From positions 14,972 through 78,971 of the forward strand of contig JAHBYA010000016.1 of NCBI GenBank assembly GCA_019636195.1: a DNA stretch of 64,000 nucleotides. Direction: 5' to 3'. The notes under the pieces are model-generated. The model was given only the letters and a program-made list of their open reading frames with translations, was not told where the DNA came from and made no database searches. Positions 4,575 to 55,293 of this stretch are shown piece by piece. A program made the translations under genes and the position numbers. The stretch comes from Planctomycetota bacterium (GTDB lineage: Bacteria; Planctomycetota; UBA8742; UBA2392). Positions within the stretch are counted from its first letter, which is position 1. Every line of letters begins with the position of its first letter.

Positions 4575-4667
4575 TGGCGGGAGCACATGGGAATCGAACC
4601 CACCTGACACTTGCGCGTCACTACGGTTTTGAAGACCGAGAGGCCCACCAGGCGCCTTTCTGCTCCC
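4575..4667 (-). tRNA. selC: tRNA-Sec (anticodon UCA)
   Basis: Anticodon loop CTTCAAA, TGGT D-loop, long variable arm TGACGC-GCAA-GTGTCA, T loop TTCGATT, extended acceptor stem GGGAGCA/TGCTCCC, G73 CCA; close to selA. Confidence 0.95.
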
Positions 4668-49198: not shown

Positions 49199-50740
49199 CT
49201 ACTTCAGTTGATAGGTCGCATGCAGCCCGTAAATGTACAGCAGCCCGCGAATCTTCTTGTCGCGCTGCGTCGCGTTGTTGATGTCCCAGGGCTGGCTGAT
49301 CACTCCGCCGCTGTTGCGATCTGAATTGATGTACGTGATTGCATCCGCGCGTTGGTCCGGCGTGAGCTGCACCTGCATCAATCGCGCCAGGTAGTCCACC
49401 ACCTGCTGATCTGTGGTCACGCCCGGGGGCAGCAAGGCGCCCGCACTCCAGCCTGACTGGGGCGGGTCTGTGTAATAGACGTTGCAGTCGCGCAGGAAGT
49501 TGGCGCGCTCAAGCATCTGCTGGCTGCTTAGCCAGCCGGTGTGCTTGGGCCATCCGTTCACGGTGGGTGGCCGCGTCGGTTCCTGGCCGCAACGGCGCAG
49601 GCTGAAGTCAATGCGCTGGCTGTTGATGAACAGGCCGGTGGCGCGCATGTAGCCAACGTGATGCTCCAGTACATTCTTGATCAGCGGCTCGCGAGCCTTA
49701 GCACTGAAGAACGCCTTGCTTAGAAAGATGCGGCGGTACAGCGCCTTCAAGTCGAACCCGCTGGCGACAAACCCCTGCGCGAGATCGTTGATCACGATGC
49801 TGCCGGGGTTGCGATAGGCAAAGTACTCCCACAGTTTGCGGCAGATGAAGCGCGCAACGTGCATACCGCGCGCGTCCAGTGTAAGGTCCACGATGTCGCG
49901 GTACTCCTGCTGGCCGTTGCCGGTGACCGTGCGCCCGAAGATGGTCTTGGTGCCGTTGTCGTGGCGGTTGTTTTCCCAGACCACGCGCCGCGAGTGAAAG
50001 CCCGACCCGAACGCATCGTTCCAGAAAACGTTGCGATAGCCCGTGAAGCTGCGTGCAGCCTGCTCAATGTCCTGCTGGGTATAGCCGTTGTCGGCCCCCA
50101 GACTGAACAGCTCCCAGAATTCGCGGGCGAAGTTCTCGTTGGGCGCGGTCACGGTGCTGTCCACGCCGTTCAGCCAGACAAGCATGAGCTGGTCGGTCGC
50201 CATGCGGTGCAGCAGGTCACCGAGGTTGCCGGTGGTGTGGCTGCGCCACAGGTCAATGTGGTCCCACACCCAGTGCGTGGCCGTCAGGTCGATCGCATCC
50301 ACCGATGTTGCAAAGTGGTCATGCCAGAACATCGCCAGCACTTCCTGAAACGGGTTGGCTGTGCGATTCATGATGTACACCCACCAGCGCAGCAGCTCGG
50401 TCAAGCCGGGGTAGCTCATGTCGCTGATTTCCGCCGACGTGGCGGCGTTGATCACCGACGTTTGCGCCGGCATCGACAGCATCCAGTCCACGTAGGCCGT
50501 GTAGCCCTGCGCCTGCACGGTGGCCAGGTCGGCGGGGTTGAAGCCGAAGTGCGTGCGGTTCAGGAAGTGAATGATATCGGCTTCGCTGACGCTGGTGACG
50601 GGCGTGAGGTCAGTATGCGGGCCGGACGACTCGCCGCCGCCTCCCCCACCGCCGCCGTCGGCGCCTCCGCCACATCCGGGGGTAATGGCAATTGCCAGCA
50701 GACAAACAACGACAAACGGGCAACACACAATCCGGAACAT
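49199..50740 (-). CDS. DUF1800 family protein
   Basis: HFLNRTHFG, FWHDHFATS, PNENFARE..ELFSLG, ARSFTG, PPTVNGW. Confidence 0.88.
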   Translation of the reverse strand: MFRIVCCPFVVVCLLAIAITPGCGGGADGGGGGGGGESSGPHTDLTPVTSVSEADIIHFLNRTHFGFNPADLATVQAQGYTAYVDWMLSMPAQTSVINAATSAEISDMSYPGLTELLRWWVYIMNRTANPFQEVLAMFWHDHFATSVDAIDLTATHWVWDHIDLWRSHTTGNLGDLLHRMATDQLMLVWLNGVDSTVTAPNENFAREFWELFSLGADNGYTQQDIEQAARSFTGYRNVFWNDAFGSGFHSRRVVWENNRHDNGTKTIFGRTVTGNGQQEYRDIVDLTLDARGMHVARFICRKLWEYFAYRNPGSIVINDLAQGFVASGFDLKALYRRIFLSKAFFSAKAREPLIKNVLEHHVGYMRATGLFINSQRIDFSLRRCGQEPTRPPTVNGWPKHTGWLSSQQMLERANFLRDCNVYYTDPPQSGWSAGALLPPGVTTDQQVVDYLARLMQVQLTPDQRADAITYINSDRNSGGVISQPWDINNATQRDKKIRGLLYIYGLHATYQLK

Positions 50741-50931
50741 TGCGCCTCCCCGGAAAGCGGACCAGAATCCCAGCCCAATTGTTACCCGTAACGAGCGTTA
50801 ACGCGCGCGTCACGGACAGGTTCAGAAATTCGCCCGGTTTTGTGGCGGAAAGTTCACAGCCGACTGCACCTTGTTTCACGGGTAGGAACGCCATACTCAG
50901 TCTGTTCAAACCAGCCCGCACAAGGAACGTC

Positions 50932-51984
50932 ATGCGCTATCTGCCACTGTTGGCCCTTCTGCTTACTGCCTGCGCCACCCACCAGCGGGTTGAGATCCCG
51001 TCGCTCGGTAAAGCCCACATCGGCCTGAAGCAGGGCTACAAAGCCGAGATCATGTCCCAGGGGCTCATGAACCCCAGCCACATCTCGTTTCAGCCGGGCA
51101 CCGGCCGTCCCACTGTTTGCGACACCGGCAATGGCCGCGTGCTGCTTCTGCGTGCCGGCGGCTGGGAAGCGATAGATGACTTCAAGACGGAGTACTGGAA
51201 GAAGCTGGAAGACGGGCGCAAGTTGTACCAGGTGGGCCCGCTGGCCACGGCTTGGCTGGACGACACGACGCTGCTGGTAACCGATGCCGGGCAAGCCGAC
51301 GGCCATGAGACGATTCGCTGGATTCATGTCCCGCACCAGCGCGTCAACCGCGGCGGCATCTGGGGGTGGATGGACAAGCAGAGCAACAAACTGGAAGCCT
51401 TGGCCGACGAGCCGGGCGACTTCGGCGAAGGCAACCTGACCGGCCTGTGCTTCAGCGACGACCGCAAGACGCTGTACGTGTGCTGCCATGGCAATGACAA
51501 CCGCACCTGGGTCGCACGGATGGATCTGGCCAGTGGCAAGCTTGAGCGCTTCCTGTCCGCTGACGACCATGGCATTGCCGTCAACTCACCGATGCAGGCG
51601 CGCATGTACAAGGGCAACCTGCTCGTGCTCTATAGTGGCGCCGGCGGCAAGGATGACGGCATACTGGTGCACTGGGACCTGAAAGCCCGCAAACCGCTGC
51701 GCCAGTGGGCACTGCCGGGCCTGACTGACCCGATGGGCTTCGCACAGATCCCCGGCAAAGACGAGTTTGTTGTCACTGCGAACAACTGGGAGCTGGGCAA
51801 GGTCAACCCCGGCAAACTTGCGCGTGTGAAGCTGGGCGAAACCGCAAGCATCGAAATCATCGCCGATAAAGTGCCCGGGCCGGTCAACTGCGACTTCGGC
51901 CCTGACGGCCGCCTGTGGGTCACCTGCCTCGGCGAGCAGATCGACAGCGACAAGGGGCTGGTGCTGGCGATCAGCGGTTTCTGA
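50932..51984 (+). CDS. Beta-propeller lipoprotein (NHL/SMP-30-like)
   Basis: Lipobox LTAC; GLMNPSHI, GLTDPMG, FGPDGRLWV blades. Confidence 0.7.
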   Translation: MRYLPLLALLLTACATHQRVEIPSLGKAHIGLKQGYKAEIMSQGLMNPSHISFQPGTGRPTVCDTGNGRVLLLRAGGWEAIDDFKTEYWKKLEDGRKLYQVGPLATAWLDDTTLLVTDAGQADGHETIRWIHVPHQRVNRGGIWGWMDKQSNKLEALADEPGDFGEGNLTGLCFSDDRKTLYVCCHGNDNRTWVARMDLASGKLERFLSADDHGIAVNSPMQARMYKGNLLVLYSGAGGKDDGILVHWDLKARKPLRQWALPGLTDPMGFAQIPGKDEFVVTANNWELGKVNPGKLARVKLGETASIEIIADKVPGPVNCDFGPDGRLWVTCLGEQIDSDKGLVLAISGF

Positions 51985-52149
51985 TCCCTGTGCCGATCGA
52001 TTAAGCAACGCGACCGAGTCTCGTTTCGATTCCGTTATGCCGCTTCGCGGCGCAGTTGGCCCTACCAGCCGACGCGGAATACAATTGAGACCGCGATGCT
52101 TGAGGACGCCTTTGGGGGCCGGTCGTGAACCTTGGAGGAGGCCACGACC

Positions 52150-53433
52150 ATGTTGTACCGAATCGCCCTGATTTTCCTGTTGCCTGCCTGCGCCTGGGCG
52201 CAGATCACCTATGACCTCTCGCCGGGGTCCGTACCAGTTCCGTCATGTGAAGTTGCAGCGGGCACAAGCAACGCAATTGCGTTGTCCTGCGAACTAATGA
52301 ACAACTCGGGTGTGTCCCAGGTTGCCTATCTGAATGAGCTGCACCTGTCCGTCACCGGCACGGCACAGGGCACAGACGTGACCGCCCTGCATGTCTATCA
52401 CACGCGAACCTGGAGCGGCGGTGCAACCACGACCCAGTTCGTCGGCACCTGCACGCTTGCAAACCCTTCCCTGACAGGTTTGACCACCTTGCTTGGCACT
52501 TCGCTCCTGAACACCATTGACGTGATCGTGGACTTCAGCCCGGCAGCGGTTGCCGGGCGCACGCTGCGCATCTCTGTCCAGGCTGTCGGCATCGTCACCA
52601 ATGGCCACACAATTGTCGGCGCCGATGTGGACGGCGGCCTGTTGACGATCGGTTCCAACGGGCCGGCCTCGGTGCTGGTGCACCCCCAACCGACCGGCGG
52701 CAGCGGCGACTACGTCGGCGACATTGACCCAGCCGGCGAATTGCTGACCTACACGCTGCACAACACCGGCGGGCAGACGCTGGACGTTCACTTCGGCCCG
52801 ACGCTGCTGGCCGCCGGCCAGTCAATCGGCAGTTTCAGCGTCGTGCTGCAGCCCGCCGCCCAGGTGGCGCCGGGCGGCAGCACCACGTTCTCGTTCATGG
52901 TCACGCCGATCAGCACCGGATCGGTGACTTTCAGATTTCGGATTGCGGTCAGCGACCCCGTGGCACCAAACTGGGTCAGGACCGTGACTGTGCAGCGCTG
53001 GGTTGCGGGCGGACCTGCGCCGCGCCTGGTGGTAGTGGGACAACCGCAGGACGGAAACACCAACCAGCCGCTTGGCCCGATTGAGGTGCGGGCATGGAGC
53101 GAAAGCGACCACCTGATCGACACTTACAACCAGCCGATCAGCGTAAGCATCAAGTCCGGCCCGGCGGGCGGCACGCTGGCTGGCCAGACAACGCTGACGC
53201 CGGTGGTGGGCATACTGACGTTCGGTCTGTCTTGCACCAAAGCCGGGACCTATGTGCTGGAGTTCAGCGGCTCGGGCCTGCGTAGCGGGGAAAGCCAGCC
53301 GATCGTTGTTTCAGGCGGCGGTGGCGCCAGCGGTGGCGGCGGCCCGGGCGGCGGCTGTGCAACCGGCGTTGCGGCAAGCCCGTTGGCGCTGGGCCTGTTG
53401 CTGCTGTTCCGCCGCAAGCGCGAACGTCGATAG
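52150..53433 (+). CDS. Secreted Ig-like domain protein with C-terminal GC-TM-basic sorting signal
   Basis: Signal peptide, beta-rich Ig-like segments, C-terminus GGGCATGVAASPLALGLLLLFRRKRERR. Confidence 0.75.
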   Translation: MLYRIALIFLLPACAWAQITYDLSPGSVPVPSCEVAAGTSNAIALSCELMNNSGVSQVAYLNELHLSVTGTAQGTDVTALHVYHTRTWSGGATTTQFVGTCTLANPSLTGLTTLLGTSLLNTIDVIVDFSPAAVAGRTLRISVQAVGIVTNGHTIVGADVDGGLLTIGSNGPASVLVHPQPTGGSGDYVGDIDPAGELLTYTLHNTGGQTLDVHFGPTLLAAGQSIGSFSVVLQPAAQVAPGGSTTFSFMVTPISTGSVTFRFRIAVSDPVAPNWVRTVTVQRWVAGGPAPRLVVVGQPQDGNTNQPLGPIEVRAWSESDHLIDTYNQPISVSIKSGPAGGTLAGQTTLTPVVGILTFGLSCTKAGTYVLEFSGSGLRSGESQPIVVSGGGGASGGGGPGGGCATGVAASPLALGLLLLFRRKRERR

Positions 53434-53499
53434 CCGCTTGTTCGCGAACACCGAGGCCGCCTTTGTCGGCTGACCGGAATCTTTCAATCGTTTCAGGTG

Positions 53500-53527
53500 T
53501 TGACAGGTCAATGCGGTGTGCTACTTT
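53500..53527 (+). promoter_or_regulatory. Sigma70-type promoter
   Basis: TTGACA (53500-53505), 16 nt spacer ending TGc, TACTTT (53522-53527). Confidence 0.7.
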
Positions 53528-53544
53528 GCCGCGAGAGGATTCAG

Positions 53545-53595
53545 ATGCAGCGCAATAACAATAATCGTGCCTTGGCTTGTCGCGGAGCGGCATAG
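53545..53595 (+). CDS. Asn-rich attenuator leader peptide MQRNNNNRALACRGAA
   Basis: GAGAGGA RBS, ATG 53545, AAT AAC AAT AAT at 53554-53565, TAG 53593-53595. Confidence 0.8.
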   Translation: MQRNNNNRALACRGAA

Positions 53596-53634
53596 GTCGA
53601 TTGTTGTGAAAAGACCTTCAGCGCCCTGCGACAA
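53577..53634 (+). promoter_or_regulatory. Antiterminator helix of the attenuator
   Basis: TTGTCGCGGAGCG (53577-53589) pairs 12/13 with CGCCCTGCGACAA (53622-53634), the terminator 5' arm and loop; inner stem AGGTC/GACCT. Confidence 0.75.
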
Positions 53635-53654
53635 CGCAGGGCGCTTGTGTTTTT
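53620..53654 (+). terminator. Attenuator terminator
   Basis: AGCGCCCTGCG-ACAA-CGCAGGGCGCT then TGTGTTTTT, ending 11 nt before the tRNA. Confidence 0.85.
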
Positions 53655-53665
53655 GCGCCGGCCAT

Positions 53666-53741
53666 AGGGGTGTGGTGTCAATTGGTAGCACGCCCGGTTG
53701 TTACCCGGGAAGTGGGGGTTCGAATCCCTCCGCCCCTGCCA
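53666..53741 (+). tRNA. tRNA with GUU (Asn) anticodon, atypical body
   Basis: Acceptor AGGGGTG/CGCCCCT, D stem GTGT/GCAC, anticodon arm CCCGG-TTGTTAC-CCGGG, 4-nt variable loop, T arm GGGGG-TTCGAAT-CCCTC, G73 CCA. Confidence 0.9.
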
Positions 53742-53823
53742 GCGGCACGGACTTCCTCCTCCGCACCAACGTGCATGCGAACACGCGTGCCGCAATTGGC
53801 CGGAATCGACCTATACTCGCACC

Positions 53824-55293
53824 ATGCTGCGCGAGCTGTTTTCGGACAACGCCACCCTTACCTGGACGCTGATCGCCGTTGACTGGACGATCCGGCTGCT
53901 GCTGGGCGCGCGCATCATCCTGCGCCGCAGCAGCGTAGGCTTTACGCTGGCGTGGCTGGCGGTCGTGCTGCTGCTGCCCGTGCTGGGCGCGGTCATTTAC
54001 CTGCTGCTGGGCGAACGCCGCCTTGGCACGCGCCGTGCCCGCCGCATCGCCGAGCTGCGCGCGCCCTACGGCCGCTGGCTTGAACAACTCGCCGCCGACT
54101 TTCCCGTCAACCATACCCCGGGCGGTCCAGCCGGTTTGATTCGCCGCCAGGCCCGCGGCGCGGTGGGCATGCCGGTGTTGCCCGGCAATACCCTGGAATT
54201 GATTGCAGACGCCAACCGGTTTCTGGATCGTCTGCTTGCCGACATTCAGGGCGCCGCCAGCAGTGTGCACCTTGAGTTCTACATCTGGCAGCCCGGCGGG
54301 CGCGTGGACGACGTCTGCGACGCATTGGTCAGCGCGCAGAAGCGCGGCGTCAAGTGCCGCATACTGGTTGACGACGTTGGCGGCTCGCCGCTGCTGGGTT
54401 CTGAGCAGCACCAGCGACTGACCGACGCCGGCGTACACGTTGTGCCCATGCTTGAAGTCGGCGTGGTGCGCACAATGTTCGCGCGGCTTGACCTGCGCAA
54501 CCACCGCAAGATCGCGGTAATTGACGGCGCGATCGGCTACACCGGCAGCCAGAACATGGCCGACCCGCAATTGTTCAAGCAAAGCGAGGGCGTCGGCGAA
54601 TGGATCGATGCCATGGTGCGCGTAACCGGCCCAGCCGTTGAAGCGCTGCAAGTGACGCTGCTGGCCGACTGGGAGTTTGAGACCCACGAAGGCGTCGAAA
54701 GGAAACCCGAGCAATACGACGTCAAACGCCTGTCCCCTACCGGCGACGCACTGGTGCAGGTCATTCCGTCCGGCCCGGGGCTGAGCCTGCTGGCGATTCA
54801 GGAAATCATTCTTGCTGCCATGTACGCCGCCGAGTCAGAGCTCGTGCTGACCAGCCCGTACTTCATACCGGACGAAGCGCTGATCAAGGCGCTGCTGTCG
54901 GCGGCAGCCCGCGGGGTGGACGTGACATTGATGGTGCCTCGCTACCCCGACAGCCGCATCGTGAAGTGGGCCGGCGAAAGCTACTTCGAAGAGTTGATGG
55001 AAGGCGGAGTGAAGGTGCACCGCTACGAAGGCGGGATGCTGCACACCAAGGCGATTGTGATTGACCGGCAGATTGCGATGTTCGGCTCGGTCAACCTCGA
55101 CATGCGCAGCTTTTACCTGAACTACGAGATATCGCTGGTCGTGTATGACAAGGACTTTGCGTGCAAGTTGCGCGACCTGCAACAGCAATACCTGAAAAGC
55201 AGCCAGCAGCTTGACCTTGAACGCTGGATGGCCCGGCCGGCCCTGCTCAGATTTGCACAACAGACTGCACAACTGCTCAGCCCGTTGCTTTGA
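53824..55293 (+). CDS. clsA: Cardiolipin synthase
   Basis: N-terminal TM pair, two HKD motifs (NHRKIAVID, LHTKAIVID), SPYFIPD, GSVNLDMRSF. Confidence 0.92.
   Translation: MLRELFSDNATLTWTLIAVDWTIRLLLGARIILRRSSVGFTLAWLAVVLLLPVLGAVIYLLLGERRLGTRRARRIAELRAPYGRWLEQLAADFPVNHTPGGPAGLIRRQARGAVGMPVLPGNTLELIADANRFLDRLLADIQGAASSVHLEFYIWQPGGRVDDVCDALVSAQKRGVKCRILVDDVGGSPLLGSEQHQRLTDAGVHVVPMLEVGVVRTMFARLDLRNHRKIAVIDGAIGYTGSQNMADPQLFKQSEGVGEWIDAMVRVTGPAVEALQVTLLADWEFETHEGVERKPEQYDVKRLSPTGDALVQVIPSGPGLSLLAIQEIILAAMYAAESELVLTSPYFIPDEALIKALLSAAARGVDVTLMVPRYPDSRIVKWAGESYFEELMEGGVKVHRYEGGMLHTKAIVIDRQIAMFGSVNLDMRSFYLNYEISLVVYDKDFACKLRDLQQQYLKSSQQLDLERWMARPALLRFAQQTAQLLSPLL

Follow-up and report, generated by a model that had tools for sequence, protein, structure and literature searches.

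Transcription attenuators based on leader peptides classically control the trp, his, leu, thr, phe and ilv operons, for which the enterobacterial systems serve as the model. This mode of control extends to the translation apparatus, where pheST and other aminoacyl-tRNA-synthetase genes are under leader-peptide attenuation in E. coli. Bacterial tRNA genes are generally seen as controlled by growth rate and not as individually regulated by feedback. Here we describe a locus of a Planctomycetota bacterium (positions 53500-53741 of the window) in which a short open reading frame (ORF) with consecutive asparagine codons and an intrinsic terminator precede a second gene for tRNA-Asn(GUU). The window is a stretch of 64,000 nucleotides (nt) taken from contig JAHBYA010000016.1 of assembly GCA_019636195.1, here contig C8 of a 3.9-Mb genome (G000) that consists of 26 contigs and is 95 % complete. 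From an evidence base that is computational throughout, we consider it likely that this locus is a leader-peptide transcription attenuator that senses the decoding of Asn codons and controls the second tRNA-Asn gene.

The resemblance to attenuators of the trp, his and leu type is close. It comprises a short, apparently translated ORF with clustered cognate codons in what is predicted to be the 5′ strand of a first hairpin. It further comprises an antiterminator strand placed where the terminating ribosome would cover it, and an intrinsic terminator directly before the regulated gene. The differences are that the amino acid is Asn and that the regulated gene is a tRNA rather than an enzyme, so that the output would be decoding capacity. 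In pheST-type attenuation a gene of the translation apparatus is likewise controlled by decoding of the codons of its own amino acid, but the product there charges the tRNA whereas the product here is the tRNA itself. T-box riboswitches also sense the state of a specific tRNA through a terminator/antiterminator switch located 5′ of translation-related genes, and the aspS2-gatCAB-asnS operon of Clostridium acetobutylicum reportedly carries an Asn-specific T-box. However, T-boxes bind the uncharged tRNA directly and do not need translation, whereas a conserved translated ORF is predicted here. Rfam models applied to positions 52500-54500 gave no T-box match at E values up to 10; only the tRNA scored above the gathering threshold, and the described Trp, His, Leu, Thr and other leaders were unmatched or at chance level. 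A tRNA gene regulated apart from the bulk tRNA pool is also found in Streptomyces, where the conditionally expressed bldA tRNA-Leu(UAA) reads a codon that no other tRNA reads. To our knowledge bldA is not under leader-peptide control, and the present gene differs from it in repeating the anticodon of a constitutive gene and in being apparently wired to sense its own codons. We know of no Asn leader peptide. An earlier note on this DNA knew of no described leader-peptide attenuator on a tRNA gene, and our full-text literature search, with subscription journals and supplements outside its reach, found none before a tRNA gene and no Asn leader. A term search of a genome-wide survey of premature terminators (Naville and Gautheret 2010, PMC2965389) gave no mention of tRNA genes.

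All elements of the cassette lie on the forward strand. A -35 hexamer TTGACA (53500-53505), set in the palindrome TTGACAGGTCAA (53500-53511), is separated by a spacer of 16 nt from the -10 element TACTTT (53522-53527), and a Shine-Dalgarno-like GAGAGGA follows (53534-53540). The leader ORF (53545-53595) runs from ATG at 53545-53547 to TAG at 53593-53595 and encodes MQRNNNNRALACRGAA in 16 sense codons (ATG CAG CGC AAT AAC AAT AAT CGT GCC TTG GCT TGT CGC GGA GCG GCA TAG). The four candidate sensor codons AAT AAC AAT AAT (53554-53565), or region 1, contribute the 5′ strand of helix P1, the presumed anti-antiterminator (53560-53605). In the RNAalifold consensus this helix joins 53560-53572 with 53595-53605 and has the tip GUCGC-GGA-GCGGC (53579-53591). 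Region 2, the 5′ strand of the antiterminator (GUCGCGGAGCG, 53579-53589), falls in the last five codons of the ORF, and its partner is the 5′ arm and loop of the terminator (53622-53632). In constrained folds an inner hairpin AGGUC...GACCU (53594-53617) caps the antiterminator form; its register varies between subgroups, and it was left out of the covariation counts. The intrinsic terminator (53620-53654) has a stem of 11 pairs, nine of them G-C (53620-53630/53635-53645), the loop ACAA and the tail TGTGTTTTTG. Twelve bases 3′ of it begins the tRNA-Asn(GUU) paralogue (53666-53741), called by ARAGORN and scoring 57.4 bits with the Rfam tRNA model, with an A1-U72 AGGGGUG stem, G73 and an encoded CCA.

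Each of the elements that the earlier note had listed, namely the promoter TTGACA-16-TACTTT, a ribosome-binding site, the 11-bp terminator with its U tract and a tRNA with the GUU anticodon, is thus present on direct reading. So is the 16-codon ORF with four consecutive Asn codons, its ATG lying one base 5′ of the frame start implied there. The antiterminator pairing claimed for 53577-53589 exists as 53579-53589 with 53622-53632, and the pairing of the Asn-codon segment, given as 53558-53567 with 53598-53607, as 53560-53567 with 53598-53605. The complete leader folds at -57.3 kcal/mol, lower than 200 of 200 shuffles (z = -3.6).

In the mechanism that we propose, the conserved promoter would start the transcript and a ribosome would translate the 16-codon leader. 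With Asn-tRNA(Asn) plentiful, the ribosome would reach the stop codon and cover region 2, the terminator would form, and transcription would end 12 nt 5′ of the tRNA. Slow decoding of the Asn codons, which are mostly AAU, would stall the ribosome so that the 5′ strand of P1 is occluded and region 2 is left free. Region 2 could then pair with the emerging 5′ arm of the terminator, allowing RNA polymerase to read through, and RNase P would release the tRNA from the read-through transcript. The net result would be negative feedback on Asn-decoding capacity. This attenuator logic controlling an extra Asn tRNA, already put forward in the earlier note, is supported by structure, by conservation and by trp and leu leaders of the same build.

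The cassette of leader ORF, terminator and tRNA is present in 20 of the 23 genomes of one family of Planctomycetota metagenome-assembled genomes (MAGs), that is, in 18 relatives, in genome G017 and in the window's own genome; the three family genomes that lack it are 76-88 % complete. Loci in relatives were taken from a DNA search of 60 relatives, as matches to the leader-tRNA stretch within the same family. At all 18 relatives' loci that have the special tRNA, it is preceded by a terminator and by a short ORF containing 2-6 Asn codons, and a covariance model built from 16 leaders recovered the further cassette in G017. We also scanned a pattern of the tRNA 3′ half across 185,579 species, with one genome each. 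It matched 20 stretches, 19 of them titled as Planctomycetota MAGs and one as 'uncultured bacterium'; 18 of these stretches comprise a full tRNA preceded by the leader, another runs off the end of its contig, and the last consists of a 3′ half only. A metagenome scan added ten stretches, in which the leader is present at all six that carry the AGGGGTGT-type tRNA; three others are different tRNAs without a leader, and the last is cut at a contig start. Distinct leader peptides number 22, among them MPLNFNHRALRSRTAA and MSLRNNNRLNNNALSARTWTV, and fall into two sequence clades; the number of Asn codons per peptide ranges from 2 to 6. Clade A follows the pattern xxxNxN(N/H)R....(C/S)RxAA, and clade B includes MSKINHNRLNNRASGART, MSLRNNNRLNNNALSARTWTV, MKLVKNNRLNNDTLLA and MLRLMNNRLNNNRAQVARLLAV. 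The search in relatives for the Asn run and its pairing, which the earlier note had suggested, therefore finds both kept in 20 of the 23 family genomes. ORF, Asn codons, stop codon, antiterminator strand, terminator and tRNA stay together in these genomes, which span several genera, while the downstream gene varies.

Two further observations concern copies of this stretch. The MAG of locus L045, which has the full gene for the special tRNA-Asn, carries on a separate contig (L032:2000-2043) an isolated copy of its 3′ half that is not called as a tRNA; it looks like a repeat left by an element that integrated into the special tRNA. Related-strain contigs (X8, X17; 53435-53778) show many differences from the window sequence as far as 53484 and further ones from 53744 onwards; among the differences listed, none falls in 53485-53743, over leader, terminator and tRNA.

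The leaders bear a signature of translation. Frame 0 is open in all 20 leaders compared with 7 of 20 for each of the other frames, and the start codon (ATG or GTG) follows a purine-rich motif in 20 of 20 loci, GGAG, GAGG or AGGA in most of them. Differences in ORF length are whole codons, and in clade A the stop codon occupies a single alignment column although it is variously TAG (10), TGA (5) or TAA (1). Asn codons counted by frame across the 20 leaders number 64, 0 and 0, all in the frame of the ORF. They make up 19 % of leader codons (64 of 335) against 3.1 % in 1,074 long ORFs of the genome. The preference for AAT in an AAC-preferring genome, pointed out earlier for the window's leader, is general across leaders, with 49 of the 64 Asn codons (77 %) being AAT compared with 11.5 % of genomic Asn codons. 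In E. coli leuL a rare codon is likewise said to be used for sensitivity. The arrangement is also rare within the genome. When the whole genome was scanned for short ORFs that have at least three Asn within six residues and a terminator behind them, four places emerged: the Asn leader, a trp leader and two further short ORFs (contigs C1 and C3). A short ORF enriched in the cognate amino acid precedes only one of the 65 tRNA calls of the genome, the tRNA-Asn at 53666-53741, and is missing from the other 64.

The elements of a terminator/antiterminator switch are conserved with the ORF. The clade A leaders have TTGAC(A/G)nGTCAA at -35 in 16 of 16 cases, and relatives place a TAnnnT hexamer 16-17 nt 3′ of it. 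A terminator is conserved in all 20 leaders, with energies from -17.9 to -31 kcal/mol and -22.9 kcal/mol in the window. RNAalifold on clade A yields two structures, the terminator and P1, the latter pairing the Asn codons with the post-stop segment and bearing the tip GUCGC-nnn-GCGGC. In this consensus 96.5 % of cells are paired, against 38-54 % when the partners are slid (13-54 % for slid controls over the terminated and antiterminated forms), and its covariation score of 0.194 versus 0.151 was reached by none of 500 shuffles. The P1 pair 40:71 is GC in nine sequences, CG in four and UG in two, and compensatory pairs in the terminator are found at 98:123 and 105:116. The antiterminator pairing of region 2 with the 5′ arm and loop of the terminator is formed in 97.9 % of cells. 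Within region 2, none of the 16 sequences departs from GTCGC and GCG, even at synonymous third positions, while the adjoining codons vary. Between clades the two strands shift together (GUCGC/GCGAC, GGUGCG/CGCACC, GGCG/CGCC), and in a swap matrix region 2 pairs best with the terminator arm of its own clade in four of four rows. When a ribosome mask is set on the Asn codons and the 3′ arm has not yet been made, the 5′ arm is paired to region 2 over 7-10 nt in all 20 leaders. When the mask is moved to the stop codon, only weak alternatives of -6.4 to -15.3 kcal/mol are left, and every one of the 20 leaders keeps an intact terminator (8 of 9 pairs in L013).

Against an Asn-sensing attenuator stand a number of observations that temper our confidence. 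The consensus promoter scan did not flag TTGACA/TACTTT, whose -10 agrees with TATAAT at 3 of 6 positions, and terminator-like sites in the region number 1 against a shuffle mean of 1.6, that is, no excess. For these two reasons a single sequence is weak evidence, and the predicted promoter and terminator are called from conservation and not from the window alone. That conservation has limits of its own: the genomes are related and form only about four independent sequence groups, compensatory pairs within clade A number only four and are matched by 78 of 500 shuffles, and seven of the nine antiterminator pairs are invariant within that clade. Arg (61) and Ala (46) codons are frequent in the leaders as well. 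Folding with ribosome constraints, which the earlier note had proposed, bears out its claim that region 2 is free or covered according to ribosome position (20 of 20). At equilibrium, however, full leaders with a stall mask at the last Asn codon still keep the terminator intact in 16 of 20 cases, and read-through would therefore have to be kinetic. Even when no ribosome is modelled, the antiterminator is the favoured fold of the truncated transcript for 19 of 20 leaders, so that energy alone does not support the role of P1 as an anti-antiterminator. The energy of the antiterminator duplex is ordinary for a GC-rich genome, as the window's leader stands at rank 55 among 454 control terminators, with ranks from 9 to 219 across all 20 leaders. 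The genome's trp leader scores no better in this test, which accordingly has little power, and we dropped antiterminator strength as statistical evidence. A mutually exclusive antiterminator is thus predicted from position and conservation, its energy being unexceptional.

Transcript data and physiology add two more reservations. Contigs assembled from RNA libraries of two studies span the locus from the end of the upstream gene to the tRNA (X8 record 18, 53006-53740; X17 record 6, 53006-53763). Being assembled, they show neither transcript ends nor levels and may derive from DNA, and we counted them as no evidence of expression. Furthermore, an extra tRNA is no obvious remedy for amino-acid starvation. 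More tRNA could help if the tRNA and not asparagine is limiting, as under fast growth, tRNA damage or poor reading of AAU. A 2026 preprint (10.64898/2026.05.06.723185) describes induction of his genes upon queuosine loss, presumably via the his leader, which shows that leaders can report the modification state of a tRNA. Queuosine status or wobble reading, which the earlier note had suggested might be sensed along with charging, could be relevant to the present leader too: tgt is present in the window's genome, and the leaders prefer the rare AAU, a codon read by wobble.

The strength of the terminator (-22.9 kcal/mol in the window) and its persistence as the equilibrium fold in 16 of 20 stall-masked leaders would suit another arrangement, in which the short ORF and terminator form an independent small gene for a small RNA or a peptide and the tRNA is reached by constitutive leak-through with no Asn switch. 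Attenuator RNAs and leader peptides can indeed act in trans, as described for rnTrpL and peTrpL of Sinorhizobium. We nevertheless find an independent gene improbable: its peptide varies except at the Asn positions and over the nucleotide-fixed stretch, it gives no role to the bias for a rare codon or to an antiterminator strand lying under the terminating ribosome, and linkage to the cognate tRNA in 20 of 20 loci would be coincidence.

Regulation by attenuation gains support from amino-acid biosynthesis in the same lineage. The window's genome has a trp leader MNNTANNLVRAWWWTPSGCRA with a terminator, followed by trpE, G, D, C, F and B (G000:C21:188462-188590, L088), the genes being named by ORF order and N-terminal sequences without a family search. 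The covariance model of the Asn leader matched trp leaders 5′ of trpE in relatives (MHSNLNILGVAGWWWNSSSGSCAA and two others) and a leu leader MIKISTNLGLLLLLAPRGAPG, with its LLLLL run, 5′ of a leuA-like ORF. The leaders at these loci in relatives (L079, L081, L082 and L086), like the trp leader of the window's genome, are built as the Asn leader is at the C-terminus and after the stop codon. The place that the Asn codons take before the tRNA, in the 5′ strand of the first hairpin, is occupied in the trp leaders by the WWW codons. Such predicted leaders show that classical attenuation operates in Planctomycetota.

The shared design could also mean that the locus is an attenuator whose Asn codons are mainly structural, an A-rich 5′ strand of P1 inherited with the chassis of the lineage, with translation rate, ribosomes, Arg codons or a bound factor as the actual signal. 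The family trp leaders have Asn near positions 4 and 6 together with a similar C-terminus and post-stop segment, the Asn-leader model scores trp leaders at 25-38 bits, and Arg codons are about as many as Asn codons in the tRNA leaders (61 versus 64). Codon choice separates the two groups, however: in the four family trp leaders the Asn codon is AAC in 12 of 12 cases, whereas before the tRNA it is AAT in 49 of 64. We regard this contrast as the best internal argument that the Asn codons of the tRNA leaders are tuned as a sensor. In addition, clade B has 4-6 Asn in two clusters (NNNRLNNN), which exceeds what the helix needs, and the downstream gene is the cognate tRNA. The WWW codons of the trp leaders form a hairpin strand as well, making structural and sensor roles compatible. 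Overall we give a mainly structural role of the Asn codons little probability.

Sensing of Asn decoding by the leader would act on the tRNA itself. In 10 of the 20 loci no more than 22 nt separate the U tract from the tRNA, which leaves no room for another promoter other than one overlapping the terminator. Beyond the tRNA the neighbourhood changes. A convergent gene directly follows it in six loci (L002, L005, L007, L013, L015 and L017), and a cardiolipin-synthase-like gene with PLDc domains (cls; 53824-55293 in the window) lies 3′ of it in only four relatives (L004, L008, L009 and L010, with duplicate loci), which belong to the window's genus and one other genus. Because downstream genes vary or converge, the tRNA is the sole conserved predicted target; as had been suggested earlier, it looks like the main one, the leader-tRNA pair being the only constant. 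No gene that makes or charges Asn is among the conserved downstream genes, the only one of which is the tRNA-Asn, and asnS lies on another contig with no synthetase gene linked to the leader. That cls is the target and the tRNA a passenger is very improbable: cls has been kept downstream in those two genera, and the 82 nt between tRNA and cls hold no evident terminator and no promoter flagged by the scan, but cls follows the tRNA only in those few loci and the convergent gene in six others leaves the leader-tRNA pair as the sole constant. The -10 that the earlier note assigned to cls, TATACT at 53812-53817, exists as a motif, but the scan flagged no promoter-like site in 52900-54300. For this reason cls may be co-transcribed with the tRNA in the window's genus.

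The tRNA under this putative control is indeed an extra one, as had been claimed. Two tRNA-Asn(GUU) genes of the genome are real, whereas a third, called by ARAGORN within a coding region, is spurious. The canonical gene, on contig C22, has U1-A72 and its own promoter and terminator. Full-length canonical tRNA-Asn is found in 19 of the 23 family genomes, with one more copy cut by a contig end, and at none of these 19 loci is there a leader, a promoter lying directly upstream. The paralogue has the acceptor stem AGGGGUG/CGCCCCU (A1-U72), G73 and an encoded CCA. G73, GUU and A1-U72 are found in 19 of 19 copies compared, and the acceptor stem is constant in these copies except for a single base of L018. 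The D arm and the stem of the anticodon, by contrast, are not the same in the two clades. Clade B paralogues otherwise resemble canonical tRNA-Asn in sequence, which suggests that the paralogue arose by duplication followed by replacement of the acceptor stem.

The GUU anticodon and the discriminator G73 are identity elements for asparaginyl-tRNA synthetase (AsnRS). As the paralogue has both, it is probably charged directly by AsnRS, an enzyme that all 22 relatives have, as does the window's genome. Transamidation by GatCAB is reported to need U1-A72 as the first base pair, and the paralogue lacks this pair (A1-U72 in 19 of 19) whereas the canonical gene has it. AsnA, AsnB and GlnRS gave no match above the cut-off in the window's genome. 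AsnB is above the cut-off in 10 of the 22 family relatives, and nine of those carry the leader-tRNA cassette; since the two coexist, the cassette is not tied to loss of asparagine synthetase, and we rejected tRNA-dependent Asn synthesis as a general explanation. The asnS gene lies about 0.8 kb 5′ of gatB on the same strand (G000:C12:280331-283882; L051, L055) with a 225-codon ORF between them, and the asnS match falls within an open frame of 1,023 codons. Elsewhere in the genome (G000:C24:64677-66878) is a dense array of about a dozen odd tRNA genes, for Gln, Lys, Val, Pro, Glu, Asp, Ile, Arg, Ala, Gly, Phe and His, with bodies unlike those of the chromosomal set; this cluster may belong to a prophage or mobile element.

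The combination raises the question of why a second tRNA-Asn with the same anticodon and another acceptor stem should be under such control. One speculative answer, which we consider rather unlikely as it stands, is that the paralogue serves as a purpose-built back-up that escapes the factor by which canonical tRNA-Asn is limited or disabled, and that the AAU-rich leader meters decoding and switches the spare on. This idea starts from the acceptor stem, A1-U72 AGGGGUG, which is invariant across genera while the body of the tRNA drifts. The canonical tRNA could be limited by a tRNA-targeting toxin or nuclease, by a bottleneck in Q34 modification that slows reading of AAU, or by mischarging through AspRS/GatCAB. 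If true, this would be the first natural circuit that sets the supply of a tRNA from the reading speed of its codon. Independently of the role of the paralogue, an attenuator apparently wired to a tRNA gene would form a closed loop from codon-reading speed to tRNA supply, and its leader would be the first Asn-specific leader peptide. At about 240 nt the cassette is compact and could be used as a natural sensor of Asn decoding.

The remaining observations concern the surroundings. The upstream neighbour (50692-51981) is kept in most of clade A; it is lipoprotein-like, with no Pfam match and a weak ScyE-like match. We rejected a functional link through this gene, which has no connection to tRNA. 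Between it and the leader lies a gene (52132-53433) that, among the loci compared, occurs only in the window's genome. Its C-terminus has a Gly-rich stretch, a hydrophobic segment and RRKRERR, which we take to resemble a GlyGly-CTERM or PEP-CTERM sorting signal, and it has weak matches to CARDB and choice-of-anchor D. The palindrome at the -35 element was considered as a specific operator and rejected, since the 12-base palindrome TTGACNNGTCAA occurs in 180 copies in the 3.9-Mb genome, both within and between genes, against about 1.4 expected from base composition; it looks like a highly iterated palindrome, an uptake sequence or a global binding site. The window also contains a selenocysteine tRNA gene on the reverse strand (4575-4667).

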